Positions 4,525 through 48,090 of a stretch of 64,000 nucleotides of DNA are shown here, piece after piece (the first letter of the stretch is position 1; every line of letters begins with the position of its first letter). Both the position numbers and the translations under genes were made by a program. The notes under the pieces were generated by a model, which ran no database searches, was not told the DNA's origin, and saw only the letters and a list, made by a program, of their open reading frames with translations. The stretch lies in the IMG/VR virus record IMGVR_UViG_3300017971_000203, one strand, 5' to 3'. Source of the stretch: a virus.

Positions 4525-4986
4525 TCACGTCTTTTCCTGCTCCCGGATGGCCTTGATGGTGCTCTCGATGTGCTCTTCGATCAGGCGGTCGTAGACCAGT
4601 CGGGCAGTGTCCCCGACAGCGCTCCAGGAGCACGTGGGACAGTAGAGAGTGTAGTTGTCGTGAGGTTGGCTCTCTTCCATGACTCCCTTGCACCTGGGAC
4701 AACGCCGGAGCAGGAAGTCCCGCTCGTAGGCGCAGTCCACGAAGCCCTTGTTGGCCAGGACCGACACGATGCTGAGGTGCAGCTTCTTGACGAGCCCGTT
4801 GGGGACGGATTCCTCGAAGAGAAAGGTCTCCCCGGCGTTGACCACATGGAGCACGATGTCCTTGGCCTCTTCCAGGTCGGAGGCCCGTACTTCAATGCGG
4901 AAGACCCCGCCCCTGGGAATGAACACCGCGCTGTTGTAATCCGTGCGGATCACGGTGTAGGGCTCTTTCTCGGCTGTCATCTTCAT
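4525..4986 (-). CDS. Zn-ribbon hypothetical protein
   Basis: CPRC...CPTC. Confidence 0.6.
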   Translation of the reverse strand: MKMTAEKEPYTVIRTDYNSAVFIPRGGVFRIEVRASDLEEAKDIVLHVVNAGETFLFEESVPNGLVKKLHLSIVSVLANKGFVDCAYERDFLLRRCPRCKGVMEESQPHDNYTLYCPTCSWSAVGDTARLVYDRLIEEHIESTIKAIREQEKT

Positions 4987-7916: not shown

Positions 7917-9236
7917 TTACACCTTCGTGAAAAGCCACTTGCGGGCGGCTTCTGCGATGCCCTTGGCGACTTGCTTCCACTCCAGTCCGGCCACTTCGAG
8001 CTCGGCTTCGCTCTCCTTGATGACGTCGGCGTTGAAGGCCTTCAGGAAAAGCCCGGTGCCGCGCTTCGTTGGAGCCTCGTCACCGAACACCTCCCCCAGG
8101 ATCTGCTCGCACCGGGCCTCGGTCACGAACATCTCGACGAAGCCTTCGATGCTCTCGGCCACCTCCGGTGCGATCTGGACCGGGGCCTTCTGCTGCACCA
8201 CAGAGTGCTTCTCACCCTTCGTCTTGAACATCAGCTCATGCGCCGGAAGGTACCACGGGAGTGGGTCACCGTTCCCACAGGACACTGGATACCAAACCAA
8301 CCCCTCGCCGACGCCCGAAATGCCGAACGTCTCCTTGACCCAGGTGTCCTCGGCCTCGACGCGCCTCACACAGCCCGCCATGAAACGAGCGTTCTTCTCC
8401 AGGGACTCGCTACTTCCGAAGTCAATCTCCACATAGGAGCTGTACCAGGGCAAGATGAACACGTCCGGGTGAGGCTGGGAACAGAGCGTTTCGATCACGC
8501 CCGGCTCCGTCACCATCTCCGCCTCGTGGTCGAAGCCAACCTGGACGCCGAAGACCACGAAGATCTTCCGGTCGAGCTTCGAAACTGCCATACCCCGCTG
8601 CACACCGGGGCCGCACCACTCTCCGAAGAACGTGAGAGGCTTCGGAGCACCGAGATACTGCTCCCAGTAGTCCCGGTTCTTTTCCACCCAGGCCCGGAAG
8701 CCCTTGTTGTCCTTCACCTCGGGCGTGAGGATACACTTACGGCTCTGCGCCGTAATCCGGCCACCGGCGATCTGAATCGCAGCGTTCGTCCCATGGAGCT
8801 TCACCTTGGCGCAGTAGGACACAACAGGAGGCTTGTACTCCGCACCGACGTGCTCCGCGATCCCCTGAAGGTTCCGAAGCACGTTGTGCAAGAGCTCGAT
8901 CGCTGGCCACTTCACGTGTCGAGGCTTCGTCTTCGGGGAGTAGTCGTCGTGACAGAAGAATTCCGTCAGGTCCGCTCCCTCCTCGTGGTCGGCCTTGTTC
9001 AGGATCATCCCGTAGGACGCCAGACCTCTGAACTTCGCTTTCTTCACCTCGGTACCGTCCCGCAGGATAGCACCCGGGAGCGCCACCGCGACGAGCTCCC
9101 CCTCCTCGTAGATGTGGTCCGAGTTCGCCACCACCTGGACCAACTTCGAATCACCCACAGCGAGGTCGTACACCCAGAGCGTGTCCGCGTTCGGGTGCTT
9201 CTTCCGGGTCTCTACTCGCATCGCTTTCACTGGCAT
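7917..9236 (-). CDS. RNA ligase (Rnl2/DraRnl-like) with N-terminal tRNA-binding OB domain
   Basis: KHPNADTL...VALPGAIL...FRGLASYGMIL (PheT/EMAP-like); ligase motifs KVKLHGTN, FGEWCG, GEGLVW, FKTK. Confidence 0.88.
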   Translation of the reverse strand: MPVKAMRVETRKKHPNADTLWVYDLAVGDSKLVQVVANSDHIYEEGELVAVALPGAILRDGTEVKKAKFRGLASYGMILNKADHEEGADLTEFFCHDDYSPKTKPRHVKWPAIELLHNVLRNLQGIAEHVGAEYKPPVVSYCAKVKLHGTNAAIQIAGGRITAQSRKCILTPEVKDNKGFRAWVEKNRDYWEQYLGAPKPLTFFGEWCGPGVQRGMAVSKLDRKIFVVFGVQVGFDHEAEMVTEPGVIETLCSQPHPDVFILPWYSSYVEIDFGSSESLEKNARFMAGCVRRVEAEDTWVKETFGISGVGEGLVWYPVSCGNGDPLPWYLPAHELMFKTKGEKHSVVQQKAPVQIAPEVAESIEGFVEMFVTEARCEQILGEVFGDEAPTKRGTGLFLKAFNADVIKESEAELEVAGLEWKQVAKGIAEAARKWLFTKV

Positions 9237-9825
9237 TGTCCATCTCCTTCTTGTTGGGGACACCCCCACCAACGCCCCGTGCTGCCCGGTGTACCCTAGT
9301 CTTCGGACCCGTCTTTCGGAGCGTACTTCTGAGCCAGCCGAGCCAGCTCCTCCCGTTCTTTCTGCTCCTTTGCCTCGGCCTGCTGCTTCTTGAGCTCCTC
9401 GAGCGAGGTTTTCCGAAGCGCCCTCACATCGAAGGTCCAGATCGCTCGGGCCTCGATGAGCTGCGCAACTTCGATGATGCTCTCATTCCGCGTCCAGCGG
9501 TCCCTATGTGCGCCGAGGAGAGACCATTCCGAGAAGTTGTAGTGCTCGAGCACGTAGGCCTCGGCCTCTTCCATGGTGTCCATCGGGAGCACTTCGAGGC
9601 ATTCGTTGCAGCCCCAGGGCGCGTGCTTGCACCCCTGGTCGCCCTTGATCCGGAGCAGAAACCGGTGCTCTGGCGGCTCGGGCTCAGGCGACTCGGACTC
9701 TTCTTCTTCTTTGGCCCGCATCTCTATCTGACCGATCCACTTCAGGATGCGCTTCAACCAGGTTCTGTCCTGGGTGCCCCAGTGGCCGAACTCCAGCTCT
9801 TCTTCGATCCGCTCCTCGAGCTCTT

Positions 9826-10329: not shown

Positions 10330-10856
10330 GGCCGAGCATCCTTGGAAGCCTGCACTGAGCTCCACACGAACTCCGCCTTGGCCCGGTTACATCCTAGCCT
10401 CTGCATGCACACAGCGACGCTTTTTTCGCGGTCGTCCCCGATCATGTCGAGGAGCTCCCTCCGGGACAGTCCGAACTCCGCCATACCTTCCTGAATGGAC
10501 GCCTCACGATCCTCCAGTTGGGCGACCACTTTCTTCATGTGCTCGTCGACGGGGTTCGAAACGCGGGGCACCTCGAGCTCCTGGACGAGCTCCGAGAGCC
10601 ACTCATCGTCAGGCAAAGTGTCCCGATAGCCGGCGACGATCTCTTCGGTGCTGTAACCCGGAGGAACGGCGCACCAGAGCGCCACTTTGGCCCGACTGAC
10701 ATCCCTATCGGTCTCGAGCCGCCAGACCTCTCCGGTCCACTCGGCGTAGCACAGGGCGTAGTTCGTGATCACCAGGGATTCGTTCATCTTCACGTAGGCC
10801 AACAGGCGAAACCCCGCCAGGGGCCGGTCCTTGAAGGTCTTCCAGTTCAGCTGCAT
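10326..10856 (-). CDS. Hypothetical protein
   Basis: 176-aa ORF; SD GGAG. Confidence 0.65.
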   Translation of the reverse strand: MQLNWKTFKDRPLAGFRLLAYVKMNESLVITNYALCYAEWTGEVWRLETDRDVSRAKVALWCAVPPGYSTEEIVAGYRDTLPDDEWLSELVQELEVPRVSNPVDEHMKKVVAQLEDREASIQEGMAEFGLSRRELLDMIGDDREKSVAVCMQRLGCNRAKAEFVWSSVQASKDARP

Positions 10857-11440
10857 TCTTCTGTCTCCTTTTCTTTCAGAGCCCTCTGAAGGGTGCCCCT
10901 CGGGATGCCTAGGAGCTTGCTCACTTTCCGTTGGGAGTAGCCCTTGCCAAAGAGCTCTTCCACGGCTTCTAGGTCGGTCTCTACCCTGGGACGCCCGACG
11001 TGTGTCCCGTTGGCCTTAGCGTGCTGCATACCGGCCTTGACCCGCTCCCTGATGGTGTCGCGTTCGAACTCGGCGAAGGCGGCCACGATGGTGAAGAACA
11101 TCTTTCCGGCGGCACTGGTCGTGTCGATGGTCTCCCGGAGGGACACGAAGTCGACGCTGTGCTCCTGGAAGGTCTCCAAGGCGGTCACGAGCTGCCGTGT
11201 GCTCCGGGCGAAGCGGTCGAACTTCCACACAAGGACTACGTCCAGCTTCCCGGTGATCGCATCCTTCATGAGCTTGTCGAGCGCCTTCCTGGAGGCCTTC
11301 GCACCGGAGACACCTTCGTCGACGTACTCCCTGTGCTTCCAGCCGTTGAGCTCCACGTACTTGCGGAGCTCCTCAAGCTGCATCTCGACGCTCTGATCCT
11401 TCGTGGACACCCTGGCGTAGATCCCGGCCCGCTTTTTCAT
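10847..11440 (-). CDS. Small serine recombinase (resolvase/invertase) with C-terminal HTH
   Basis: YARVST..Q...Q, DEGVSG, VWKFDRFARS, AEFERDTIRERVKAG, GRP, HTH. Confidence 0.95.
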   Translation of the reverse strand: MKKRAGIYARVSTKDQSVEMQLEELRKYVELNGWKHREYVDEGVSGAKASRKALDKLMKDAITGKLDVVLVWKFDRFARSTRQLVTALETFQEHSVDFVSLRETIDTTSAAGKMFFTIVAAFAEFERDTIRERVKAGMQHAKANGTHVGRPRVETDLEAVEELFGKGYSQRKVSKLLGIPRGTLQRALKEKETEECS

Positions 11441-12572
11441 GACGACCCCTCAGCTCTCTTGAGCAGCCGTGGCATCAACACCCAGCGCATCTGGGAGTCG
11501 GGGGCGACCACCTCTTCGTCGCGCCCCTTCGGGTGCTCGGCGATCATCTTGTCCAGGAAAGCCACCGCTTCACACTCCTCTTTGTGAGGAGAAAAGGCAG
11601 CGCAGAAGTCTCTGTACTCGCCCAGGGTCCCGGGACAGGGGTTGCCTTCTTCGTCTTTTCTCATCGTGTCCTCCGTTACACGTCCGACGCTTGGCGCGTC
11701 CGTTGATAGTCGGTCTCACGCTCTTCGACGTACTCGCCCCGGTGTTTCCGCCCCACGCGGTTGATCGTCCACCAGGGCGACCAGGGCTCGGAGCGCTTGT
11801 TGCGAAAGCGCACCTTGGCGTTCTTCTTCAGCTTGTCTGCCGGCAGGTACGTGGTCGTCCACCACGTCTCTTCGGTCTCGGGGTCGTCCCGGTACAGCGA
11901 ACACTGGCAGTAGTACTCATGGCGTGGCATCGGTCTCTTCCTTGCGCTCCCGGTACCAGACGAAGCCGCACTTGTCGTCGCATTCGGCCACACAGAGGGT
12001 CTCCAGGCGGTAGTGCATCGCAGGAGCGCAACCGCACTTCGGGCACAAGTCGCCACGGACACCCAGGACATCTTCGCTTCGGCCCCCGAGTTCCGGTGGT
12101 AGCCTGATGTAGTCAGGGGTGCCGATGAGCAGGGCGCAGGAGCCGTCCAGGTCTTCACGCATGGGGAGCTGTCCCGGGAACTTGTCCAACCAGAGTGTGC
12201 TCATGGCTTCCTCCCGTAGAAGAGGCGCGTGAGCACCTCCCATTCCGTTCGTTCACGGAGCTTCTTGATAGCGCGCGCGGGCGCGCCCAGGTACGTGTAT
12301 TCGAGGAGCGCCACGAGGGCCGCCTGGCTATTCTCTCTCAAGTACTGCCAGGTCTGGAGCCACGGGGGCTCGGCCTTGTTCTCTTCTTCGAGCTGCACCC
12401 GAAGGTCGAGAAGCGCCTGGATCCGGTGCGCGCTCGGCGAACCCACTTCCAGGAAGCCGTTCTCGAGCTCTTCCCGGACCTTCTCGTCGATTCGTCGCAG
12501 TGTTTCATGGCGGTGCATGGGTGTCCCCCTCCGTTGGAACTGCACACATCGTGTGTCGATGTGACACCACAC

Positions 12573-12601
12573 ACCGTAATAGGTCGCTATTCGATTGTCA
12601 A
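12573..12601 (-). promoter_or_regulatory. sigma70-type promoter
   Basis: TTGACA-17-TACGGT. Confidence 0.7.
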
Positions 12602-12900
12602 GCGGAAAAGAGGAAAAAGATCAGACGGAGTAGACGGGGGTGTCCGAGAGGACCATGGCGTCGAAGATGGCGAGCCCGATCGGGAGCTTTCTTCGGCGGC
12701 ACTTCGGACACTCGAGGCTACCTCCATCGGAGTCGACCATGTGCTCCCGGCACTTTCGGTCGGGACAGTCCGAGGGCAGCAGGGTGGACTGGTTCTCCAG
12801 GACGGTACTGTGGTTCAAGTCTGCTCGAGGCATGGCGCCCTCCTTCGGGTCCTCTCCCCAATCTTTTGTATACCCGGAAACGAACGCTTCCGGGCCACTC

Positions 12901-14106
12901 TCACCAGCTTCCATCGCGAACGGTCTCTGTGTCGACCACCTTCGGGGTGCCGCAACTGACGACCTCCTCGACCGGGGCGCTCGAATCGTCCTGTTGACCC
13001 TCTAAGCCCTTGTCCTTGTCCATCTCGGAGATGGTCTTCACCTTGCCCAGCGTCTCGGAGGCCTCCACGTCACCAAGGTCCTTGTCGTAGAGGTCGAACC
13101 AGGGGATCCCGGCCGCGAAGTACTCGTCCTTGCCGATGGGGCTCGGGGGCGGCGCTTCGCCGGTGATCTGCTGGTACATCTCCGCGTTCACCAGGTGGAC
13201 GAACACGCGCTGCTTGCAGTCCTGGTCCCAGACATGGACACCGTGGGGGTCGGGATAGACCTGCTGACGCATCGAGCCGCCCGCACCCATCCCCATCAGA
13301 GCCGCCTTCGGGGCGTTCTCCTGGAAGCTCCTCTTCGCGTGTCTCCGAATCACCGTGGGCTTGATGGCGTGCCTCATGAAGCCCTTGGCAACGCCTTCAG
13401 GGGCTCCCGCAGGCGCAGTGCTGCACAGGACCGCGCTCTCGAGGGTGTGCCCGCCGCTGGTCTTCACTTCCCCGGAGTAGCTCTCGAAGCCGTCGTCGCC
13501 GTCCCAGCCGAGGCTCTGCCCGGAGGCTCCGCCAGCAGTCGCAAAGCCGCCCTTCGCGACACCGCGGGAGCGCGTGCCTCTGCGCTTCTTGGGCTTCGGG
13601 AAGTGCTCTCGCTTGCCCGGGTAGACGGCCAGCTGCAGGCCGCCGTGCTTCTCCTCACCCGTGACCTGACCTTCCACGGTATAGCCCATGCCCAGGGGCA
13701 TCGCCACGAACTGGCTGACCTTGCCCTCTTCGGACTTGATGCCGTCGATCCACTTCTGGGGCGGAGCCACGAGGTAGTCCTGCTTGTCCTCGCTGAGACC
13801 GTCCTTCCAGGGCTCACCCGTGATGGCGTCGATCTTCCCGACGCCAACCTTCACGGCGCAGGGCGCGTGCGTGCGCAGTCCGAACTGGATCCACATCGCT
13901 TCGCGCTGGTGGAGCGGCAGGAACACGCCGCCCTTCTCCACCCAGCTGGGCGGCACCTTGTCCTTGTAGTCGTCGATGCGCTTGAGAGGGAAGCGTCCGA
14001 CCGAGCGTGGCAGGGGGTAGGTCTTTCCGTCCTCCGGGAGCCGGAAGGTTCTGTGGAAGACCACGATCAGGTTCTCTGTGTGCAGTTCATTGCCGATGAC
14101 TTTCAT
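12901..14106 (-). CDS. Conserved hypothetical protein (FxRTxRxPxDGxxYxLP family)
   Basis: FHRTFRLPEDGKTYPLP, QREAMWI, QDYLVAPPQKWIDG, QFVAMPLGMGYTVEGQVTG, GAGG, PWFDLY. Confidence 0.8.
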   Translation of the reverse strand: MKVIGNELHTENLIVVFHRTFRLPEDGKTYPLPRSVGRFPLKRIDDYKDKVPPSWVEKGGVFLPLHQREAMWIQFGLRTHAPCAVKVGVGKIDAITGEPWKDGLSEDKQDYLVAPPQKWIDGIKSEEGKVSQFVAMPLGMGYTVEGQVTGEEKHGGLQLAVYPGKREHFPKPKKRRGTRSRGVAKGGFATAGGASGQSLGWDGDDGFESYSGEVKTSGGHTLESAVLCSTAPAGAPEGVAKGFMRHAIKPTVIRRHAKRSFQENAPKAALMGMGAGGSMRQQVYPDPHGVHVWDQDCKQRVFVHLVNAEMYQQITGEAPPPSPIGKDEYFAAGIPWFDLYDKDLGDVEASETLGKVKTISEMDKDKGLEGQQDDSSAPVEEVVSCGTPKVVDTETVRDGSW

Positions 14107-14369
14107 GTCGTCTCCTCGTAGTGGCGGGGCCTCCGCCCCTGCAAACTCGAAAGCTCAAGCGGGTTACGAAGTCGTCTGTGGCCGCAAAGGAAGAGCGGTG
14201 CCCCGAGTGGAACTGGATATCGAGACCGCCGCGAAAGGTGCTGCCCATGACGATTCTGTGTGTGTCGTCCCAGTAGTGGACCCGGATGACATCTTCAGGA
14301 TCCGGGGCCTCAGTGAACTCGAGAGCCGAGAAGCCCTGAGACAGCTCTCTCCAGCGGAACGTGCCCACA
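14087..14369 (-). other. Cassette 14, terminal module in the continued linker frame
   Basis: ...HRIVMGSTFRGGLDIQFHSGHRSSFAATDDFVTRLSFRVCRGG... in ORF 14087..14998. Confidence 0.7.
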
Positions 14370-14583
14370 TCACCCCCGTGCGATCCGGAAGCCGACATCG
14401 CTGCCTGCTCCGATCTGGTGTTCGTCGAGGCGTCCATCGTGCTCGAGGAAGTCTCGGTCGTGGGTGCGCACGTAGATGACATTGTTGTAGCAGAAGCCTT
14501 TGAGGAGGGACTTGTAGGAGGCGGTCCGGGGCCTCGGTCCGTTCCCGAGGGGCCAGGGGTTCGGGATCTCAGGCCAAAAGTGG
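14370..14583 (-). other. Cassette 13, placed in 0 frame by a 1-nt insertion in its heptamer (CC[A]CTTTT)
   Basis: HFWPEIPNPW...LLKGFCYNN...SDVGFRIARG*. Confidence 0.8.
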
Positions 14584-17405
14584 CGGCGATCACCCGTAGC
14601 AGATCCGGAAGCCGACGATGTCGTGAGGACTCCCTGGGTAGAAGTTCTCGTCGTGGTAGTAGTTGGTCCGCTTGTGGAGAGTGCCGTCGCTTCTGTTCCG
14701 GTCCCACCAGGACCCGCCCCGGAGACTCCAAAAGGGCGGGGCTCACCCCCAGCAGATCCGGAAGCCCGTGAAGAAGATGCCACGTGGTCGGAGGCTCCCG
14801 TTCCGTCGTCCGAGATGGATCCGGAGAGCGTTCGTGAAGCGGGAGTAGCACTCGCCTCTTCGAACGCGGCGCCGAAAGGGCGCTTACCCTCTGCAAACCC
14901 GGAATCCGATGATGTAGAGCTTTCCTGTGATTCTCCATACCGTGCTGCATCTGCCGAGGGGTTGGAAGTCCTCTGAGAACCACGAGTTCCCTCGGCACCT
15001 GCTAAAGGGCCCCTACCCCCAGCAGATCCGGAAACCTTTGCCCCAGGAGTTGTCGGCGAAAGGTTCGGAGTCACGCTTCGCGACGCTGGCGACACCTCTG
15101 AAGAGGCTGCTGGCGAAGCCTCGCCCGGTCTTGGCGACAGGGAAGACGAAGTGTCGAAAGGGCGCTCAAGTACCTCCGTCGGATCGGACGATCCGGAATC
15201 CGAGCAGCTTGTCGGACATGGTTGTGAGCCCGGTTCCCCGGGCGTTGAGACGGAGGGAGACCGCGGAGCCGCCCCCTCGACAGATCGGGATCCAGACAAA
15301 GGGCGGCGCTCACCCCCAGCAGATCCGGAAGCCGGCGCTGGTCCAGTCCCCGAACTCACGCCCCTGTCTTCGGCGGGATGCGGAAGGCTGGAGTCGCATC
15401 CAGGACCCCGCTCGGACGACCCGAAAGGGACAGCGTCCTCCTCATCCTCGGCAGATCCGGAATCCGCGCCGCTGGTGGGCCCAGCTTCGTCGTGGGGAGA
15501 AGCACTTCCCAGACAGTCGCACGCGCGCGTAGACGGCGTCGAAACACCCTCCCCGGGGCTTGCCATACGGCTCCCGCCAGGGCTCCCCGGAAAAGGGTGA
15601 TCACCCCCAACAGATCCGGAAGCCGATATGATGGGCCCGGGTCCACATGGTGCGGGGGGTCTTTCTCCCGGGTCGCAAATTGTGGGGAGGGTACGGGTGT
15701 GCTGCATCGAGCCATGCGCCCCCTCGGAGGAAGCGGTCCCGAGGAAAGGGTCAGGAGTGTCCTCCTCGACAGATCCGGAAGCCCCAGCGGCCGGCTGCTC
15801 CTCTTCCGTATCCTCTGATGGAGAGCCGTCCGAGAGCGGGGGTAAAGAACTCGATGAGGTAGATCCCCCGCTCCCCGAGTCGAAAGGGCGATCAACCTCG
15901 GGCGATTCGAAAACCCTTACCAAATGAGGAGGAGGCGAAGGGCTCGGATGACCGCTTCGCGAGGCTGGCGACGCCCCTGTAGTAGACGCTGGCGAAGCCC
16001 CGCCCGACCTTGGCGAAGGGGCTCGGTCCTCGAGCGACCCGGTCGGCCTCTGTGGTCTCTCCCCAGGGACGAAAGGGCGGCGATTACCCCTGGGATCGGA
16101 CGATCCGGAAGCCGAGGAGCGTCCCCTTGTACTCGGGGTAGCTCCCAGGGCCTCGGTGGGCGATCCGGGCTCCGTGACCAGAGGAGAGTTCCCTGAACAA
16201 GCGTCCGCCTCGGAAGTTGGCACTTCGAAAGGGCGCCGTCTACCCCCGGCAGATCCTGAACCCTGGTCGAACGGTGTAGAAGACGTAGGTCTCGAGCTCG
16301 ATGTACCAGGACTTGAAGCCCTCGGGGTGTTGGTTCCCGAGCCACTCGCGGCGGGACAATCGGAGGGGTGGGTCGGGGTAGAAAGCGCCGCGGAGAGTGA
16401 GGGATCGCCGTGCCCAAAAGGGAGCTCAACCTCGGCAGAGCCGACGCCCTCGGGGTCCGGCTCGGGCGTCTGGGACGAGGCTGAGTCTGGAGAGGGGCAG
16501 GGGCCAGTCGAGAGAGGAAGTCGTTCGATCTCGAAATTGACCTCCGCGGGCTCTCCGCGCTGGTGCCGTTTCTTCGACGTCACCTGCCTCATGGGAGGGT
16601 CCGGCTTCTGCTCCGCCATAGTGATGTCGGGCTTCGCGTGCTTCATGTGTTCGGCGTATTCGTCCCAGCACCACTCCCAGACGTTCCCCAGGCAGTCGTA
16701 GAGGCCCCACCTGTTCGGAGCCAGCTGCCGAACCGCATGAGTCCGACCATCTGAGTTCTGGTCAAACCAGGCGATCTCTTCCAGAGACGCCTCGCGCCAC
16801 TCGACTTCGCCACCACACCGGTCGCACACCCCAATCTCGTACCGCGCACCGTCGCTGCCCGCCCTGGCGGCGTACTCCCACTCCACCTCGGACGGGATCC
16901 GGAAGCCCGGGCCCTCCTTCCACAGGTAGCCCTGCTGGCGGTCCCCGATGTACGCGGGCGGTAAACCGCAGCGCTCCGAGAGCGCGTTGCAATACTCGAT
17001 GGCGTCGTACCAGCTCACGCACTCCACCGGGCGCTCGAGAGGATTGTCGCCCTGCTGGAAGTGGCTGGGGTTCTTCCCCATCACCGCTGCGTACTCGGAC
17101 TGCGTGACCGGCGCAGAAGCCATCCAGTACGTGTTCTCGATCGTCACCTCGATCTGATGCTCGTTCCGCCACCGACCATCTTCGTCCGGCGGACTGCCCA
17201 ACACGTCCGTACCGGCAGGGATCTCCACCAGCTCCGGGATCACAACGCCCTCCAGACGTGCGAGGTCAAGGCGCGCGAGCACGTCCCCTCCCCGGCTGCG
17301 AAGCCGCAGGAACTCCCGGAGAGCCGCCTCGTCATTGTCCACCGCCAGCTTCCCCAAGCGCTCGAGCTGCCGCACGTTGGTCGTTGATTCTCTCGTTGTC
17401 TCCAC
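14370..17405 (-). CDS. FGE-sulfatase (SUMF1/C-type lectin fold) protein, 0-frame product with long Ser/Gly/Pro linker; parent of frameshift isoform array
   Basis: Motifs IPAG..LGSP, PVTQSEY, PVECVSWYDAIEYCN, RIPSEVEWEYAARAG, PNRWGLYDCLGNVWEWCWD; ends VGFRIARG*. GTG start at 17405 follows SD GGAGGGG. Confidence 0.93.
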   Translation of the reverse strand: METTRESTTNVRQLERLGKLAVDNDEAALREFLRLRSRGGDVLARLDLARLEGVVIPELVEIPAGTDVLGSPPDEDGRWRNEHQIEVTIENTYWMASAPVTQSEYAAVMGKNPSHFQQGDNPLERPVECVSWYDAIEYCNALSERCGLPPAYIGDRQQGYLWKEGPGFRIPSEVEWEYAARAGSDGARYEIGVCDRCGGEVEWREASLEEIAWFDQNSDGRTHAVRQLAPNRWGLYDCLGNVWEWCWDEYAEHMKHAKPDITMAEQKPDPPMRQVTSKKRHQRGEPAEVNFEIERLPLSTGPCPSPDSASSQTPEPDPEGVGSAEVELPFGHGDPSLSAALSTPTHPSDCPAASGSGTNTPRASSPGTSSSRPTSSTPFDQGSGSAGGRRRPFEVPTSEADACSGNSPLVTEPGSPTEALGATPSTRGRSSASGSSDPRGNRRPFVPGERPQRPTGSLEDRAPSPRSGGASPASTTGASPASRSGHPSPSPPPHLVRVFESPEVDRPFDSGSGGSTSSSSLPPLSDGSPSEDTEEEQPAAGASGSVEEDTPDPFLGTASSEGAHGSMQHTRTLPTICDPGERPPAPCGPGPIISASGSVGGDHPFPGSPGGSRMASPGEGVSTPSTRACDCLGSASPHDEAGPTSGADSGSAEDEEDAVPFGSSERGPGCDSSLPHPAEDRGVSSGTGPAPASGSAGGERRPLSGSRSVEGAAPRSPSVSTPGEPGSQPCPTSCSDSGSSDPTEVLERPFDTSSSLSPRPGEASPAASSEVSPASRSVTPNLSPTTPGAKVSGSAGGRGPLAGAEGTRGSQRTSNPSADAARYGESQESSTSSDSGFAEGKRPFGAAFEEASATPASRTLSGSISDDGTGASDHVASSSRASGSAGGEPRPFGVSGAGPGGTGTEATALSTSGPTTTTTRTSTQGVLTTSSASGSATGDRRHFWPEIPNPWPLGNGPRPRTASYKSLLKGFCYNNVIYVRTHDRDFLEHDGRLDEHQIGAGSDVGFRIARG
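14590..14736 (-). other. Cassette 12 (-1 frame, CCCTTTT)
   Basis: PFWSLRGGSWWDRNRSDGTLHKRTNYYHDENFYPGSPHDIVGFRICYG*; canonical RGGSW...GFR. Confidence 0.92.
14743..14880 (-). other. Cassette 11 (-1 frame, CCCTTTC)
   Basis: PFRRRVRRGECYSRFTNALRIHLGRRNGSLRPRGIFFTGFRICWG*. Confidence 0.87.
14884..15009 (-). other. Cassette 10 (-1 frame, CCCTTTA)
   Basis: PFSRCRGNSWFSEDFQPLGRCSTVWRITGKLYIIGFRVCRG*. Confidence 0.87.
15013..15162 (-). other. Cassette 9 (-1 frame, CCCTTTC), paralog of cassette 3
   Basis: PFRHFVFPVAKTGRGFASSLFRGVASVAKRDSEPFADNSWGKGFRICWG*. Confidence 0.87.
15166..15303 (-). other. Cassette 8 (-1 frame, CCCTTTG)
   Basis: PFVWIPICRGGGSAVSLRLNARGTGLTTMSDKLLGFRIVRSDGGT*. Confidence 0.85.
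15310..15429 (-). other. Cassette 7 (-1 frame, CCCTTTC)
   Basis: PFRVVRAGSWMRLQPSASRRRQGREFGDWTSAGFRICWG*. Confidence 0.9.
15442..15597 (-). other. Cassette 6 (-1 frame, CCCTTTT)
   Basis: PFSGEPWREPYGKPRGGCFDAVYARVRLSGKCFSPRRSWAHQRRGFRICRG*. Confidence 0.87.
15601..15750 (-). other. Cassette 5 (-1 frame, CCCTTTC)
   Basis: PFPRDRFLRGGAWLDAAHPYPPHNLRPGRKTPRTMWTRAHHIGFRICWG*. Confidence 0.9.
15751..15888 (-). other. Cassette 4 (-1 frame, CCCTTTC)
   Basis: PFRLGERGIYLIEFFTPALGRLSIRGYGRGAAGRWGFRICRGGHS*. Confidence 0.85.
15892..16077 (-). other. Cassette 3 (-1 frame, CCCTTTC)
   Basis: PFRPWGETTEADRVARGPSPFAKVGRGFASVYYRGVASLAKRSSEPFASSSFGKGFRIARG*. Confidence 0.87.
16084..16233 (-). other. Cassette 2 (-1 frame, CCCTTTC)
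   Basis: PFRSANFRGGRLFRELSSGHGARIAHRGPGSYPEYKGTLLGFRIVRSQG*. Confidence 0.87.
16240..16422 (-). other. Cassette 1 (-1 frame, CCCTTTT)
   Basis: PFWARRSLTLRGAFYPDPPLRLSRREWLGNQHPEGFKSWYIELETYVFYTVRPGFRICRG*. Confidence 0.85.
16426..16599 (-). other. Cassette 0 (-1 frame, degenerate entry CCCTCCC)
   Basis: PSHEAGDVEETAPARRARGGQFRDRTTSSLDWPLPLSRLSLVPDARAGPRGRRLCRG*. Confidence 0.55.
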
Positions 17406-17422
17406 CGTCCCCTCCGTTGGTC

Positions 17423-17722
17423 TCAGTTCTGAAGCCGCTGTCGCTGGCCCTTGAACCACAAGCCCGAGTCCTGCTCCTTTTGGTTGTCGTAGCTCTCCAC
17501 GTCCCAGTCGGCGTGGTAGAACGTGACCCGCACGAGGTTCTGCTCCTGGTGATCCAGGTTGAGCGGAAGGTCGCGCCACGAGATGCGGCACCCATACGGG
17601 TCCTTCGCCAGACGCTCATTGATAGCCACGATCACCGGACCCAGGTCCCGCTCCTTGTTCTTCTTCCACTGCTCACGCGCACTCACTGGCGTGATTGGCT
17701 CGACTTTCTGGTTGCTGCCCAT
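17423..17722 (-). CDS. Hypothetical protein
   Basis: 99-aa ORF directly upstream of the FGE gene. Confidence 0.6.
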   Translation of the reverse strand: MGSNQKVEPITPVSAREQWKKNKERDLGPVIVAINERLAKDPYGCRISWRDLPLNLDHQEQNLVRVTFYHADWDVESYDNQKEQDSGLWFKGQRQRLQN

Positions 17723-17737
17723 CGGTCTACGTCTCCT

Positions 17738-17962
17738 TCACCAATCCCCGTCATGTACTTCGAGGTCCTGCTTCGAAGCCTCGATCGCCCTCACAATCAC
17801 CTCCTCTCGGATCTCCAGGAGCTCTGATGCCAGCGCGTGCAAGACCAGCTCCGTGATCGCCTTGCTCCTGCTGATCCCGCCCCGATGCCGGCAGTACGAA
17901 TCCACCCGCTCCAGCATCGCCGTCAGGGTGTACAAGCACACCCGAGCTGTGTCACGCCCCAC
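17738..17962 (-). CDS. Ribbon-helix-helix protein
   Basis: LERVDSYCRHRGGISRSKAITELV. Confidence 0.6.
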   Translation of the reverse strand: MGRDTARVCLYTLTAMLERVDSYCRHRGGISRSKAITELVLHALASELLEIREEVIVRAIEASKQDLEVHDGDW

Positions 17963-18015
17963 GTCATACCTCCCGTCACCCTGATGTCACACCAGAGTAG
18001 GACAACAGTCACATA

Positions 18016-18043
18016 ACTATATCGGTCGTTCCCCGGTTGTCAA
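18016..18043 (-). promoter_or_regulatory. sigma70-type promoter upstream of the RHH/FGE-array operon
   Basis: TTGACA-16-TATAGT. Confidence 0.65.
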
Positions 18044-18046
18044 GGC

Positions 18047-18253
18047 CTATGTGTCGGGGAGCTCGTCTTCTCGGTAGAAACGCCACGTAGGCATCCCGTC
18101 CGGGTCGAGCGCATTCATTACAAGATAGGCCAACGCCGTCGCACGGCTGACCTTCTGAACCCCATGCACCACGCAGAGATACTTCGCCAGAAGATCCAGG
18201 CGATCAAGGACCTCCGGCAGCAAGCGAAAAGAGGTCGGCTTCGTATTGCTCAT
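18047..18253 (-). CDS. Ribbon-helix-helix-like protein
   Basis: TSFRLLPEVLDRLD...VSRATAL. Confidence 0.55.
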   Translation of the reverse strand: MSNTKPTSFRLLPEVLDRLDLLAKYLCVVHGVQKVSRATALAYLVMNALDPDGMPTWRFYREDELPDT

Positions 18254-18369
18254 CAGCAAGACTCCTGTTAGGGTGAGTGAGCTACATCGGTGTAGTACAT
18301 ACAAAAACGTACCCGATCCGAAGCGGGAAGGGAAGGGGTATCACCGAAAGAAGGGGAGCTTGTAGGAAG

Positions 18370-20268
18370 ATGGCGACACAACGGCGGAAACTGTTCCCGG
18401 CCCTGATTGTCGATCTGACCCCCATCGAACTGGCTGCGAAGGGCCTGGTTTCGACGCATACGTTCGGCCAGCAGTTCGAGTTGCAACCAACCACTCTCAC
18501 CGCATCCGCGGGCGCGAACTATTTCCCCGCGGTTCGGACCACAGCCAAGTGCAGGGACAAGCGCTACGCCTACCCCAGGGATATGCGTTGCTACCTGGCC
18601 AGCCACAAGTTCCACACGAAAGAGGGGGAGGAACCTGTGGAACTGCCCCAGGCGCTCTTCAATGACCCCTACGACCCCCCGGGAGGGTTCAAGACCCGCC
18701 TGGACTGGAACCCGAGCTCCTGGCGCGTAGGCGACCCGTTCCCGAAATTCGACTCGGGACCTGACCTGGAAGGCTGCGAAGAACTCGAGGGGGACGAGCT
18801 CCTGAAGAAGGCGGTGGAACTTCTGGACTTCGGCTACTTCCTGAAGGCCACCGGCAAGCTCCTTGGACGGTCTCCCACAGTGCTGCGCGAACTCCTGATA
18901 GACGCCGGCGAATGGCCCCGGAAAGACCTCGGAGGCCAGAAGACTCGTAAACGGGGCGTCGTCGAAGAACCAGAGCCGGAAGAGCCGGAGCCCGAAGCAG
19001 CTGCCGAAGAGCCGCAACCGGAGCCAGAGCCGGAGCCGGAAGAGCCAGAAGCCGAGGTCGTGGATGAAGACGAAGACCTCGGAGAAGACTTCAGAGACCT
19101 AGGAGAGCCCGAGTTCAGCCCCGAAGGCATCCTGACCCTCTATTTCGAGAATCACCCCTTCCAGCTGACCGATAGCAATACACACCCCTTCGTCATCAAA
19201 GATGCTTGTGATTACCTGGAGATCCAGAACGCCCGCCAGGCTGCCGATCGGCTAGACAAGGATGATGTATGTTCAACATATATCATCGACTCGCTGGGCA
19301 GACCTCAGAAAACGCTCACCTGCAACTTCCCCGGCTACCTGGATCTCGTGATGGGGGCTCGGTCTTCGGACCGTGCACGCCCCTTCCAGCGGTGGGTAAC
19401 ACACACCGTTCTGCCCACTCTTGCCAAACTGGGGACGTACACTCTGGGACAAGAACAGGCCGCTCATGGCTCGCCGCTGCCGGGGGACCTCGAGCGCCTC
19501 TTCATGCAGCAGGCAGAGATCAACGTCCAACAATCCCGGATCAACGCCCAGCACGCCGAGACCATCTCCACCCTGGAAGAGCTGGTCGGGAAAATGATGG
19601 GGGGCATCGACGACTTCGTGAAGAGTGCTTCGAAGCGCTTCGAAGAGGTCGAAGAACGAACGGACCAAGCTGAAGAGCGTATTTCCAACCTGGAAGAAAC
19701 CCTGAAGAACGCCCTGGAAGACCCGTTCCTCGGAAACGACGCTGCGAACCAGGACAGGCACATCTTGAACGCGATCGCCAAGGCCAGGGGCATGGCCATC
19801 TTCTTCGGCACCAGCGACGGTGCCCGGATCGAAAGACAACTCCGAATTTGTCCCGAGGGCTCTCCCGAACACGACAAGCTGAAGTCCGAGAAGTGGAAAA
19901 AAGCCAGACCCCACATCAAAGGTGTATACACGGCCTTCTACCGCTACCTGCTCCGCCATTCCCGGAACCCTGTCATCGACGTGTGCGCCCGCAAACGCAG
20001 AGATGTGGAGCTCGTCAAGAAAGCCAACGGCGCCAAGGCCGCCAAACGGTTCGAAGGGATCGCTCGTCTGATCGACTACATCAGAGTCGAAGAGATGCCG
20101 GAAGCGTTGACCCTCCTGGTTCGCTCCTGTCTGGAAGAAGGGTTCTATCCCGTGCTGTTCCACGAACAACCCCGCATCCGGGAACTGATACGGGATATCC
20201 GGTACAAGAAAGAAAACAAACCGCGTGGTTCCAACGGAACGCCGCCGGAACCGCCCCCGAGCCCCTGA
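18370..20268 (+). CDS. Bro-N domain (antirepressor-like) protein with PE-rich linker and coiled coil
   Basis: PFVIKDACDYLEIQNARQA...GYLDLVMGARSSDRARPFQRWVTHTVLPTLAKLGTY. Confidence 0.82.
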   Translation: MATQRRKLFPALIVDLTPIELAAKGLVSTHTFGQQFELQPTTLTASAGANYFPAVRTTAKCRDKRYAYPRDMRCYLASHKFHTKEGEEPVELPQALFNDPYDPPGGFKTRLDWNPSSWRVGDPFPKFDSGPDLEGCEELEGDELLKKAVELLDFGYFLKATGKLLGRSPTVLRELLIDAGEWPRKDLGGQKTRKRGVVEEPEPEEPEPEAAAEEPQPEPEPEPEEPEAEVVDEDEDLGEDFRDLGEPEFSPEGILTLYFENHPFQLTDSNTHPFVIKDACDYLEIQNARQAADRLDKDDVCSTYIIDSLGRPQKTLTCNFPGYLDLVMGARSSDRARPFQRWVTHTVLPTLAKLGTYTLGQEQAAHGSPLPGDLERLFMQQAEINVQQSRINAQHAETISTLEELVGKMMGGIDDFVKSASKRFEEVEERTDQAEERISNLEETLKNALEDPFLGNDAANQDRHILNAIAKARGMAIFFGTSDGARIERQLRICPEGSPEHDKLKSEKWKKARPHIKGVYTAFYRYLLRHSRNPVIDVCARKRRDVELVKKANGAKAAKRFEGIARLIDYIRVEEMPEALTLLVRSCLEEGFYPVLFHEQPRIRELIRDIRYKKENKPRGSNGTPPEPPPSP

Positions 20269-20961
20269 TCAACGGTCCTCCTTCCACAGGGTCTTGCCTG
20301 CCCCGGAACAGTACGAGTCCCAGGACAGGGCCGGTGCCTCGATCGGCTTCGGAAGGGGCGCCGTGAGCTCGGTCTTCTCCTTGTCGACCCCGTACTCTTC
20401 CAGGCAGCGTTTCTCGACTTCCTTCACGAAGTCCACCACCCAGTAGATCGACTTGCCGGTCAGATCCACGAGGAATTCGAACAGTATCCGGCATCGGGCC
20501 ACAGGGTTGGGATCGAGCTCCAGGCCCCACTCCGCCCCCAATCTGAGCCCCTTCTGCGTGATCGCCACGAAGCGCTCGTCGCAGACGAACACATCGGCGC
20601 CCCAGCAGATCTCGATCCCGAGACGGATGGACTCCATGGAAGCAAACACGAAGTGGGAGAGATCTCCCAGCTCGGTCGCCTGATAGGGGTCCAAGGTCTC
20701 TTCGCCATCTGCCTCCTGGAACACCCGCTCCAGGAAAGAGCCCTCGCAAGGCACAGAGAGATCCCCGCCCGTCCCCTCCCCCGGGAAGAACTCGCACGAA
20801 CGCATCGTGGAGGCCCACACGTTCGCCGTCTCGCCCTCCCCCATGGGCACCTGTATCAAAGGGACCTCGTTCGGGAGGTGCCCGAAAGAGATCCAGCGGA
20901 CGGGGAGCTCGAACTTGTTGCGCGCCCAGACCTTCTTCCGTCGTCGCTTTATCCGGCCCAT
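20269..20961 (-). CDS. Hypothetical protein
   Basis: MGRIKRRRKK... Confidence 0.6.
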   Translation of the reverse strand: MGRIKRRRKKVWARNKFELPVRWISFGHLPNEVPLIQVPMGEGETANVWASTMRSCEFFPGEGTGGDLSVPCEGSFLERVFQEADGEETLDPYQATELGDLSHFVFASMESIRLGIEICWGADVFVCDERFVAITQKGLRLGAEWGLELDPNPVARCRILFEFLVDLTGKSIYWVVDFVKEVEKRCLEEYGVDKEKTELTAPLPKPIEAPALSWDSYCSGAGKTLWKEDR

Positions 20962-21251
20962 CAGTCGTCGTACTCCCCGCGCATCAGGGACTTGACCCGC
21001 GAATTCTGGGCGGCGCCTACGACCCCGTGCAAAGCACCCCAGCACAGGAAGTGGACGAACAGCGACGCAAGGAGCCCGATCACCGGGAACTCGTATTCGA
21101 CGTTGGCGTCGCTCACCAGGTCGACCAGGACCGCACCGGCCAGCCACACGAAGAAGAACACAACGACCGCGCCCGAGAGGTAGTAGAGCCCCTTCACCAG
21201 CAGCGCGATCGGCAGCACGGCCAGCCAGAACCACTGTCGTAGCTTCTTCAT
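20961..21251 (-). CDS. Membrane protein
   Basis: 2-3 hydrophobic segments. Confidence 0.65.
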   Translation of the reverse strand: MKKLRQWFWLAVLPIALLVKGLYYLSGAVVVFFFVWLAGAVLVDLVSDANVEYEFPVIGLLASLFVHFLCWGALHGVVGAAQNSRVKSLMRGEYDD

Positions 21252-22456
21252 GGCGCCTCCCACACTCCGAGCTCTTCCAGACGGGCTCGGCTGCAGACTT
21301 CTCCCCTGCGAGCCAGGTCCAACACCATCACACCAGGCTCGACTAGCATGCACCACCCCGGGGAAGGTTCGTAGTCGAACCAGAACTCCCGAATGCTCTC
21401 CGGCGACGCCCCGCAGAGAAGCGTCTGGAGCTCCCTGGCCGTGCAAGAAATCACATAGGCCTGATCGCCATTGATGCGATCAAGGTTCGACGACAAATAC
21501 AGGAAGCGATGCTTCAGACCGGGCGCGTCTTGTGTCCCGTCGTATGGAGGGGGTGGATCGGACGATCCGGACCCGTCGTCCCCGCGTTCGTGTGCTTGTT
21601 CCACCACTCGAGCAGCTTGTCCTGGTTCGCCAACAGCTCCCGGCGCTGCTCCTTGGTCAGGCTGGCCAGCAGCTGCCCCTCCTCGCTCTCTAGGAGCCGC
21701 ATCAGAGACTTCCTCGAGCCCTTCTTCGGTCGAACCATCGTGTCTATCACTGCGTCCAGGTCCCTCTGAGACGGCGGCTTGTACCTTCCCGTCATCCCCA
21801 TCAGCAGAGACTGGTACCACGTCTTTCCTGAAAAGAGCTCCGAAGCCTTGTTCGAGCCGCGCGTCGTACTCTTCTTTCCCGAGAACTCGTTGCATCGTCG
21901 CTTCGTACTCATCGCGTTCACGAACCCCCTGGTCGATCTCGTAAATCCGGGTTTCCTGGTTCCCGATCAAGTGCCGCAAGTGGCCCGCAAGACCATCGCT
22001 TCCGGCCTCTTCCGCAAATCGACGTGTTTCCTGGAGTTGCGACAAGACCTTCTGCTCGAGAACCTTCTGTTTTAGAAGGTTCTCCTTCAAGGCGTCTTTG
22101 CCGTAGTCTACGATACCCTTCAAGAAAGCCGTCAGGGTCACTACCTGCCCTGTGTGGGGCTTTCTGATAGACGTCGACACCGTGAGCCCGTCTACAGGGG
22201 TCCTCAAGAACCCCACGACGTCTGTTCCATCGGGGCGCAGCGACTGAGGGGCTCGCGGAAGGAGCTCCCGGTTGACCCTCTTCACGAGGTCGTTGATGAA
22301 ACGGAGCTTCTTTCGGGCTCGGTCCTGGCAGCCCATCGCATATCGACAGGCGTCGTTGAGTGTCTCTTGCAGTTCGGTGTCGGCGTCTTCGAGCTCGTAC
22401 CGAATCTCACCGGCCAGCTCGCGCAGCTCCCGGTCGTGCTTCCGTCCTGCGTTCAT
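21248..22456 (-). CDS. Coiled-coil hypothetical protein
   Basis: N-terminus paralogous to C-terminus of upstream gene. Confidence 0.6.
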   Translation of the reverse strand: MNAGRKHDRELRELAGEIRYELEDADTELQETLNDACRYAMGCQDRARKKLRFINDLVKRVNRELLPRAPQSLRPDGTDVVGFLRTPVDGLTVSTSIRKPHTGQVVTLTAFLKGIVDYGKDALKENLLKQKVLEQKVLSQLQETRRFAEEAGSDGLAGHLRHLIGNQETRIYEIDQGVRERDEYEATMQRVLGKEEYDARLEQGFGALFRKDVVPVSADGDDGKVQAAVSEGPGRSDRHDGSTEEGLEEVSDAAPRERGGAAAGQPDQGAAPGAVGEPGQAARVVEQAHERGDDGSGSSDPPPPYDGTQDAPGLKHRFLYLSSNLDRINGDQAYVISCTARELQTLLCGASPESIREFWFDYEPSPGWCMLVEPGVMVLDLARRGEVCSRARLEELGVWEAP

Positions 22457-30004: not shown

Positions 30005-30172
30005 CACAACCTCCACGTGGTCGACAGTGAAGAGCATAGTCCAAGGCAAAGACCGTGTCAGCAACAGAAGGCCCTCAACGGCTTGAACAGGAGTACCCCT
30101 TCTGTACGTACACAACTGTCCCGGCGGGTGGGAGTGGGGTGAACCCACGGGAGAACCCCTGCGATAGACTCG

Positions 30173-30296
30173 ATATAAGTCAGTCGGATTGTCAAGGTTC
30201 CAGATCCTGGATCTCATTCTGTCGGGAGCAGAGCTCGGGGAGGGAGGAACCACGACAGGTTCCCTGCTCCATATAGGTCAGTCGGATTGTCAAGGT
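30173..30296. repeat. Direct repeat pair ATATA(A/G)GTCAGTCGGATTGTCAAGGT (tandem TTGACA elements on - strand)
   Basis: Copies at 30173-30198 and 30271-30296, 1 mismatch. Confidence 0.8.
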
Positions 30297-30887
30297 CCGA
30301 GATCACTGATCAAATTTCGGAGGGTGCGGGGCCGAGAATAGGAGAGGAAAGCTTCACGAAGCGGAGAGATCTGGCAGGAGGCCCCCTACCCTAATCTTGA
30401 GGGTCGGGAAAGTGTTGCACTGCGCGGACTTGCGGGACCGCGGGAAGTTGGCGTAGTTCGCCATTTTGCGGCGGCCGGAAAGTGGCGAATACCAACAGTT
30501 TCCGCGGGCTTAGGTCGCAACAGTTCAACCGTGTTCACAACTGCAGGACCGTGCCAGGGAGCTGGACTAAGATCGTGCCAGGTTCGGTGTGTGGAGAGAG
30601 AAAAGTGCATGCGTTGGGGGTGGCCCAAAAGGGTGCCCCTCGGCGGGTCTCGGATCCGACGCCATAGCTCAAGGCTGCCTGGCCCACAAGGCCGGCCCAG
30701 AAGTGGCCCACAAGGTAATGGTTCTGGGCCGTCTGTATGTAGGTCCGGCTCGCACCCAGCTTGGTCACTGCTTGGTCGCTCCCCCATAGGAGCCCGTACC
30801 CCCAATCTTGGGGATGCTGGTCTAGTTGCTCCTCGGACCCGGTTCGGTTACTGTCGTTCCATACTACTGTAACCCAGGGGGCGAATC

Positions 30888-47018: not shown

Positions 47019-47843
47019 TCAAGGGGAAGGGGCCCACGGCTCGAAGCCGCCGGTGATGGTCCAGAGGTCCTTGGCCTCTTCGTCCATGATGTGCTCGGGG
47101 GAAGCGTAGAAGAAGCCTCGGTGCCCCCAGTTCTTCCCCCAGCTGTTCGCGATCACGAAGCAGCCGCCCTTGTGGTCGTGCAGCCAGCCCACGATGGTCA
47201 TGGCGTGGCGGCCGACGATCCGACCCTCACAAGCCCCCACGACCGAGTGCCTGTCCACGTTGAAGAAGTTCTTGTTCAGCGCGGTCCCGTAGATCACGGG
47301 GTTGCCGGCGTGGAGGTGCAGCAGGACATCACTCACCCGGTCGTGCCCGGAGCTGATGATCCGGTGGTGGCTCGAGATCTTGTGAAGGGCCGCCTCGCGC
47401 AGGGCTCGCATCGGAGGCGTGTGCTTGAACTTGTCTGGGTCGTAAGGCCAGGTCTCTTCGAGGCATACCCCAATCTTGCGTAGGGCGTCACAGGCCACGC
47501 TGATGTGGGTACCGCTGTCGAGCTGCGTCTTCGGCGGGTCCATTCGGGCCCGGGCGATGAAGTACAGATGCAGCGTCGACAAGTCCCTGTGCGCATCCCG
47601 TCCGTGTTCCTGGATCCGCTTGAGCTCGTTCGAGAACGCGAGTGCCTGAGCTACACACGACCCGAGGCGCCGCTGGTCCTGGATGGGACTGCAGTACTGC
47701 CGCAGGTCGGCAGAGCCGAGGTCACTCCACCACGAGGCCCGGTCTCCACCCACCTCGAGCAGCAGGCTCGCCTTGAGCGCGTCGTTGGTCCAGTGCTCGG
47801 CCTTGATGGGCTCGGGCATGTATCCGTCAAGCTTCGGTGTCAT
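47019..47843 (-). CDS. Papain-like C1A cysteine peptidase
   Basis: QDQRRLGSCVAQA, GRHAMTIVGW, IANSWGKNWGHRGFFY. Confidence 0.92.
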   Translation of the reverse strand: MTPKLDGYMPEPIKAEHWTNDALKASLLLEVGGDRASWWSDLGSADLRQYCSPIQDQRRLGSCVAQALAFSNELKRIQEHGRDAHRDLSTLHLYFIARARMDPPKTQLDSGTHISVACDALRKIGVCLEETWPYDPDKFKHTPPMRALREAALHKISSHHRIISSGHDRVSDVLLHLHAGNPVIYGTALNKNFFNVDRHSVVGACEGRIVGRHAMTIVGWLHDHKGGCFVIANSWGKNWGHRGFFYASPEHIMDEEAKDLWTITGGFEPWAPSP

Positions 47844-48090
47844 TGTCGTCTCCCTATGATGTAGTCGTCGTTGGTTGTCGCCTGACAGGACTCGGGCCGA
47901 ACAATCCCCAGCGGCCAGTAGCTCGGAACAACATACCACTGGTAGCCAGAACGGTCGCAGTGGGTTCGAAAGCGCCGCCCACAGTCACAGAAAAGGCGCT
48001 GCCCCACATGGAGCACCGCACCCTCCGCCACGAGCGGCCTCCCGCAGTAGCACTTCAGGACCTCCGGTTCGACCTTGAACTCGATCACGA

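Follow-up and report, generated by a model that had tools for sequence, protein, structure and literature searches.

A single-base insertion in a putative serial −1 frameshift array of a viral lectin-fold gene and its possible effect on the default C-terminal isoform

Comparison with described systems

Programmed −1 frameshifting, as in dnaX (tau/gamma), orfAB of IS3 and IS911, and lambda G/GT, is characterized by an X_XXY_YYZ heptamer in zero-frame phase and an overlapping −1 open reading frame (ORF) providing an alternative C-terminus. Both features are shared by a gene on the minus strand of a 64,000-nucleotide stretch of viral DNA (IMG/VR record IMGVR_UViG_3300017971_000203; the whole stretch is referred to as the window), in which a body of the FGE-sulfatase/C-type-lectin fold is followed by an array of short modules, termed cassettes 1 to 14. 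The C_CC.U_UU.Y motif of the array belongs to the H_HH.U_UU.Y heptamers, the most efficient class for −1 frameshifting in E. coli (Sharma et al., PMC4066793), and G-rich Shine-Dalgarno (SD)-like motifs are located upstream in both cases. In contrast to the known systems, there are 12 to 13 sites in series per gene rather than one, a consistent 3' hairpin is lacking, and each exit would give another short module completing the same fold; frameshifting here is, in addition, a prediction from sequence. A literature search found no published description of serial frameshift exits or arrays on lectin-fold, receptor-binding or tail-fibre genes.

Programmed frameshifts may be lost by an indel, as some prfB genes lack the +1 frameshift site and are simply in frame. 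The thirteenth site of the array, which carries an extra A, resembles this case in that a one-base change at a recoding site turns a frameshift-dependent product into an in-frame product. It differs in that 1 of 13 exits is affected, such that the default isoform would be changed and a downstream module disconnected while the gene keeps its recoding.

Variable proteins of diversity-generating retroelements (DGRs) with the C-type-lectin/FGE fold include Treponema denticola TvpA (PDB 2Y3C) and Bordetella phage Mtd. The body of the protein studied here matches TvpA best in structure, and variability in DGR proteins is similarly placed in the C-terminal ~45 residues, between RGGSW and GFR motifs. 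However, diversity in the viral gene is hard-coded as 14 cassettes, rather than generated by mutagenic retrohoming. A DGR model was rejected because no template repeat was found in the 64 kb, where the one cassette-to-cassette repeat is only 72% identical; nor was a reverse transcriptase found among the about 30 window ORFs scanned.

Invertase-switched C-termini (the Mu Gin G segment, P1 Cin, p15B Min and the R64 shufflon) also combine a constant N-terminal part with alternative C-terminal segments and have an invertase gene nearby, but all 14 modules here lie on the minus strand in direct orientation. A serine DNA invertase/resolvase gene is located ~3 kb downstream of the array (10847-11449, minus strand; phrog_125, E 3e-62). 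No inverted repeats above chance and no crossover sites linking this gene to the cassettes were found, and an invertase model was rejected for lack of inverted sites. Finally, a phage-like 2-kb Logan contig of SRR19514075 (P0270) carries a 209-aa FGE-sulfatase body gene abutting a separate 146-aa gene that consists of three tandem in-frame RGGSW...GFRICEE modules. In both loci, a phage FGE/C-type-lectin body lacks its C-terminal piece, and several alternatives for this piece lie behind it. The modules of the Logan contig are placed in frame within a distinct gene that has a start of its own, whereas 12 modules of the array are startless and in the −1 frame, and only cassette 14 has a possible start.

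Organization of the array and its slip sites

Coordinates throughout refer to the minus strand of the 64-kb window unless a plus strand is given. The features of the gene and the main array are as follows.

14370..17591, minus strand: main ORF as now read, with a helical N-terminus, the FGE-sulfatase/C-type-lectin body, a low-complexity linker of ~700 aa and cassette 13 in frame
16623..17237, minus strand: FGE-sulfatase body (Pfam PF03781, profile positions 3-204 of 255)
14584..16422, minus strand: cassettes 1 to 12 in the −1 frame, starting at C CCT TTN and ending with GFR[IV]..G and a stop; frame 0 is open across all of them

The main ORF is open from 17591 to 14370, giving 1073 aa from a GTG, and ends at a TGA at 14372-14370. 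Residues 119-323 match PF03781 (E 2.6e-37), and the last ~50 profile positions are absent from frame 0. As the match is limited to positions 3-204 of 255, frame 0 lacks the C-terminal ~50 residues of the fold. Past ...WEWCWDEY, it continues for ~700 codons rich in S, P, G and T and interrupted by P-F or P-L.

Slip sites 1 to 12 all read C|CCT|TTN in one common phase, with every spacing a multiple of 3 (first C at 16422, 16233, 16077, 15888, 15750, 15597, 15429, 15303, 15162, 15009, 14880 and 14736), and each forms an X_XXY_YYZ slippery heptamer in the correct zero-frame phase. The last codon is UUC at seven sites, UUU at three, and UUG and UUA at one each, and C_CC.U_UU.Y is found at 10 of the 12. 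CCC TTT is present at every site, although TTT accounts for 10% of Phe codons genome-wide and, within the cassettes, for 3 of 38 (P about 3e-18). It is therefore the nucleotides that are constrained, rather than the P-F residues.

Read from CCC, the −1-frame peptides are 39 to 61 residues long, start with P-F, usually contain an RGG/RGGSW-like motif and end with GFR[IV]..G and a stop, which sits 0 to 4 codons ahead of the next CCCTTT. The 613 codons of the cassette frame include exactly 12 stops, a single one for each cassette and none inside it, and the third-codon-position GC content (GC3) is 0.75, similar to that of real genes of the window. Frame 0 has no stop in 612 codons versus 7.6 expected from synonymous resampling of the cassette frame (P about 5e-5); ordinary genes of the window have 0.029 stops per +1-frame codon. 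Between the paralogous cassettes 3 and 9, the ratio of nonsynonymous to synonymous substitution (dN/dS) takes values of 0.45 for the cassette frame, 1.1 for frame 0 and 1.6 for the third frame. By hhalign, the profile of the cassettes aligns with that of the FGE C-terminus (probability 95.8%, E 8e-9), and a search with the cassette profile of 5.8 billion proteins returned short PF03781 fragments only. The profile match, the dN/dS values and the single stop per cassette indicate a meaningful −1 ORF under selection.

Ribosomes most likely reach cassettes 1 to 12 by a −1 slip at the C_CCU_UUN heptamers, while for those that do not slip, the cassettes would encode, in frame 0, a disordered linker rich in S, P, G and T. 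The constant body would thus be followed by a tandem array of alternatives for its missing last ~50 residues. Independent initiation of cassettes 1 to 12 as mini-genes was rejected for lack of start codons: the first ten codons of every cassette are free of them, and six cassettes lack them entirely. Transcriptional slippage was rejected because the T runs are merely 3 to 4 nt. G-rich SD-like motifs precede every site, in letters that also encode the end of the previous cassette, and the site boundaries are conserved over 20 to 30 nt.

Regions that fold markedly better than shuffled sequences lie at 15812-15881 (site 4, z −1.9), 15086-15155 (site 9, z −2.8) and 14933-15002 (site 10, z −2.2), all on the minus strand; these stable 3' folds could give exits 4, 9 and 10 a higher efficiency than the others. 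Upstream of the array, the −1 frame of 16429-16761 (minus strand) reads ...RRARGGQF...GRRLCRG, and its stop precedes the first CCCTTT by one codon. This candidate “cassette 0” looks degenerate, has no heptamer ahead of it and reaches an E value of only 1.7 with a hidden Markov model (HMM). It could also reflect a need for the boundary sequence as a cis element even without a preceding cassette. A cluster of GFR-like motifs at 4597-4885 belongs to an unrelated protein.

The extra base at site 13

14576..14583, minus strand: site 13, CCACTTTT, the heptamer consensus with one extra A at 14581 and the X_XXY_YYZ arrangement lost
14370..14582, minus strand: cassette 13, HFWPEIP...GFRIARG plus TGA, now in frame 0; GC by codon position 0.63/0.46/0.81
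14375..14578, minus strand: old linker-frame reading of cassette 13, stop-free, S/T/P/G/A fraction 0.74

Site 13 starts at 14583, 153 nt past site 12, and reads CCACTTTT, i.e., CC[A]CTTTT. The phase becomes C|CAC|TTT|T, so that no slippery heptamer is formed and cassette 13 is in frame without any slip. Alone among the 13 sites, it deviates from the consensus, and by exactly one inserted base; the other 12 heptamers are free of indels in the window sequence. Without the A, the site reads TGATCGCCG-CCCTTTTGG and is consensus-like throughout. Its upstream flank, TGATCGCCG, equals the sequence before site 3 (TAATCGCCG) except for the stop codon, and its downstream part, CTTTTGG, agrees with sites 1 and 12.

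With the A, frame 0 runs as D-R-R-H-F-W-P-E-I-P... to the GFRIARG end of cassette 13 and the TGA at 14372-14370. Skipping the A gives ...RRPFG, and from 14578 this frame is open for 163 codons to a stop at 14089-14087. It reads FGLRSRTPGPSGTDRGPGPPPTSPSS...SASGSHGG and then ...RIVMGSTFRGG...LSFRVCRGG, a stretch also given as ...VIRVHYWDDTHRIVMGSTFRGG...HSGHR...LSFRVCRGG. A first-pass annotation of the DNA had described all of this, namely, a site in register with an extra base, a cassette 13 in frame 0 that ends the ORF at 14370 and a linker frame that is restored on deletion of the base and runs on to 14087, and its coordinates and readings were confirmed. It had also proposed that one additional nucleotide at the heptamer is what exposes a cassette. 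This holds as sequence logic, as the insertion equals a −1 shift (a −1 slip at an intact site-13 heptamer and the present insertion give products that differ only by P to H at the junction), but it does not demonstrate slipping at the other 12 sites.

The S/T/P/G/A fraction of the old linker frame through cassette 13 lies within the range for the frame-0 reading of cassettes 1 to 12 (62% to 80%). Among 177 same-length +1-frame segments of ordinary genes of the window, only two were both stop-free and linker-like to this degree. These properties are expected if the old frame through cassette 13 was once translated as linker.

The structure of the 1029-aa protein was predicted with AlphaFold2 from an alignment of 55 homologs, in which MAFFT set the homologs' GFR motif on the terminal strand. 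The body has predicted local distance difference test (pLDDT) values of 87 to 97, the linker is disordered, and the last nine residues, DVGFRIARG, form a strand at pLDDT 81, with low confidence for the rest of cassette 13. The top structural match is TvpA (2Y3C; Foldseek E 1.4e-11; VIA-align Z 20.9, root mean square deviation 2.8 Å over 223 residues, 35% identity). The TvpA alignment extends to the last residue of the model, and FGE is matched at Z 15. In the model, the end of cassette 13 occupies the place of the TvpA C-terminal strand.

Cassette 14 and the old linker frame

14087..14369, minus strand: cassette-14 region in the old linker frame, with a core at 14144-14257 containing RIVMGSTF...HSGHR...SFRV and a stop at 14089-14087
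14396..14411, minus strand: possible start, ATG at 14398-14396 with GGAG at 14411-14408, 9 nt upstream, giving a 103-aa mini-gene that includes cassette 14

Between 14369 and 14090, the old linker frame is the only open frame (GC3 0.69). A 20-nt overlap joins the end of the cassette-14 ORF to the next gene, as is usual for gene junctions here, and a non-coding 14370-14106 would leave a 264-nt gap, wider than any other in the 11-kb neighbourhood. In a search of 1249 six-frame pieces of the window with an HMM built from cassettes 1 to 13, cassette 14 ranked first among non-members (E 0.02), ahead of the next background piece (E 0.6). A three-block pattern of the FGE C-terminus (RVxRGGSW-like, RSAxR-like and GFR-like blocks at canonical spacing) was found in 50 of the 68 canonical C-termini of unrelated loci; its sole match within the window was 14144-14257, and there were none in 20 shuffled windows. 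As the pattern was devised post hoc, after cassette 14 had been seen, this result is illustrative. A protein language model search placed the cassette-14 segment among short FGE-sulfatase fragments (0.91; 24 of 30 matches). No homolog of the 103-aa ORF was detected in 5.8 billion proteins.

Because cassette 14 is intact, the insertion would have to be recent unless the module continues to be produced in some other way. The ATG and GGAG suggest that it may still be expressed as a mini-gene. Conceivable routes are initiation at 14398 or a rare +1 slip in which tRNA-Phe, on the UUU_U run at 14579-14576, would bring ribosomes into the old linker frame. Cassette 14 may thus not be an orphan. The earlier description of an orphaned terminal cassette stands insofar as the old frame does enter a cassette-like module, and is weakened by the module's own ATG and GGAG.

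Relatives of the gene

Relatives were sought in viral contigs (with protein queries and with the DNA pattern of the boundaries), metagenome contigs, GTDB genomes and INPHARED phages and with HMMER over 1.84 billion protein representatives. A single relative exceeds 50% identity: P0004, of 756 aa, which is encoded on a 5.8-kb contig of SRR29850983 and is 60% identical in the body. Other matches were generic FGE-sulfatase proteins with identities of ≤45%, and none of 160 fetched loci contained a comparable array.

Frame 0 of P0004 comprises the body, six or seven P-F/P-L sites 42 to 60 residues apart and ~180 aa past the last PF site, with ...SGLRVAAGE... near the end. Its terminal G-L-R-V strand (GLRVAAG) has an AlphaFold2 pLDDT of 82. 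The P0004 tail has no significant similarity to either the cassette profile or that of the FGE C-terminus. The layout fits an in-frame default end as the normal arrangement of the family. Residues 511-578 of P0004 form a helical segment of ~70 residues (pLDDT up to 89) in an otherwise disordered frame-0 linker, and this segment has no counterpart in the window gene.

Origin of the extra base and competing explanations

The reading favoured here, to which we give slightly better than an even chance, is a serial-slip array in which a derived insertion switched the default isoform and stranded the former in-frame default module. In the original design, site 13 would have been a 13th exit (C_CCU_UUU), and ribosomes that never slipped would have ended in a canonical-looking 14th module with its stop at 14087. 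The A at 14581 would destroy the 13th slippery motif and do in the DNA what a −1 slip does on the ribosome, such that every ribosome past site 12 would now make the cassette-13 isoform, with an H-F-W rather than a P-F-W junction, and cassette 14 would lie outside the frame-0 path. The A is probably derived, as suggested by the consensus at site 13 once it is removed, by the linker-like, stop-free old frame and by the presence of cassette 14 in that frame. The earlier proposal of 13 slippery exits with an in-frame default end agrees with these three internal tests and with the layout of P0004, with the ancestral state itself deduced rather than seen.

That the A is a sequencing or assembly artefact, the true genome having an intact C_CCU_UUU as site 13 and cassette 14 as its in-frame end, is very improbable. 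Over window positions 10370-21459 (11,090 nt), which include site 13, an independently assembled Logan contig (L081, SRR6963591) shows 100% identity. The exact 1029-aa product is present in protein database records from JGI (3 contigs), Logan (a contig seen in 2 samples) and ENA, with all assemblies found identical, and the insertion context, CC-A-CT, contains no homopolymer; the agreeing assemblies may, however, come from overlapping samples. The A is thus judged genuine and an assembly error unlikely. Of the two options in the first-pass annotation, an isoform switch or an assembly error, the former fits the internal tests. Equally genuine in origin, but of different meaning, would be an A inserted into a DNA-level archive, in which only the in-frame cassette is expressed and the others await a rare indel or recombination event at conserved boundaries, or are decaying duplicates; the insertion would then be the mechanism of cassette choice. 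Such an archive would account for the lack of start codons, as in silent cassettes (pilS/vls type), for boundaries conserved over 20 to 30 nt and for the fact that the one cassette known to be in frame owes its frame to a DNA change, and a serine invertase/resolvase gene lies nearby. It is nevertheless improbable: short C3 and T3-4 runs are poor mutational hot spots and an inserted A is no slippage product, switching by indel or recombination has no need of a rare TTT kept in exact X_XXY_YYZ phase at 12 of 12 sites, the cassettes all share a single strand, and a search for inverted crossover sites gave none. Decay is, in addition, at variance with purifying selection in the cassette frame and with one stop per cassette, none of them internal.

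A more substantial, though still unlikely, alternative is that nothing has changed: cassette 13 would always have been the in-frame terminus, and the 103-aa ORF (14398-14087) a separate mini-gene with its own ATG and ribosome-binding site. Its product would be a free C-terminal module that complements the lectin body in trans or has another role, and the resemblance of CCACTTTT to the slip sites a relic of cassette duplication. Gene callers do annotate a 103-aa gene from ATG 14398, which has GGAG 9 nt upstream, and separately encoded tail modules exist, as in the Logan contig with a 209-aa body gene and a 146-aa module gene. On the P0004 contig, too, a 105-aa ORF resembling the 103-aa ORF overlaps the end of the main gene in the same manner, and the two-ORF layout could be conserved instead of a recent accident. 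Against this stand the deviation of site 13 from the consensus by exactly one inserted base, and a frame into cassette 14 that is linker-like and stop-free across cassette 13, as in only 2 of 177 controls, when a mini-gene starting at 14398 needs no such frame. Moreover, the first nine residues of the mini-gene are an off-frame reading of the GFRIARG end of cassette 13, and the 103-aa ORF is without a homolog in 5.8 billion proteins.

Besides the gene calls and the P0004 ORF, several results weigh against a serial-slip array altered by a derived insertion. A 3' structure more stable than shuffles is present at only 3 of 13 sites (4, 9 and 10). Cassette 13, which matches the FGE C-terminal profile at an hhalign probability of 75%, is not significant alone against the canonical C-terminal HMM (E 1.2); for cassette 14 alone, the corresponding values (39% and about 1) are not significant. 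As the docking of the cassette-13 strand by AlphaFold2 was guided by the alignment, its placement partly expresses likeness to known family members. Slipping at the array is deduced from sequence marks, strong as they are, and the ancestral state and direction of change from internal evidence only.

Other features of the window

12901..14106, minus strand: next gene, 401 aa, no family match, with its ATG at 14106 inside the end of the cassette-14 ORF

In the 11-kb neighbourhood, adjacent genes mostly overlap or are ≤16 nt apart. The array is located in an accessory-gene region with no obvious tail module. Other genes of the window encode a Bro-N protein (18277-20268, plus strand) and, on the minus strand, an RNA ligase (7917-9482), a papain-family peptidase (47019-47984) and a fusion of GIY-YIG and HNH endonucleases (52368-53327); most remaining ORFs have no family match. 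A gene-poor stretch at 30169-30332 (plus strand) contains a pair of 66-nt direct repeats, 76% identical and 98 nt apart.

Implications

Under the favoured reading, the insertion is a mutation inside a serial-exit system and yields sharp, cheap predictions. It marks the exact join that gives a complete protein, and a dominant product with a DRRHFWPEIP junction is predicted, which would be detectable by mass spectrometry. It is also a natural control, as comparison of site 13 with and without the A provides a handle on native slipping and on completion of the fold by cassette 14.

More broadly, and with a likelihood that we place a little below even, one gene may give a graded set of 13 to 14 binding-protein isoforms by serial programmed −1 frameshifting, with a different ligand-binding end-piece at each exit and the A as a natural experiment that converted one exit to a constitutive end and silenced the old default. 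If the array does work by serial frameshifting, it would represent an undescribed form of viral bet-hedging, by one gene, on specificity for ligands or receptors and a translational counterpart of DGR diversification. Phages could then retune the isoform mix by point indels, and the isoform hierarchy would be easily changed by mutation.

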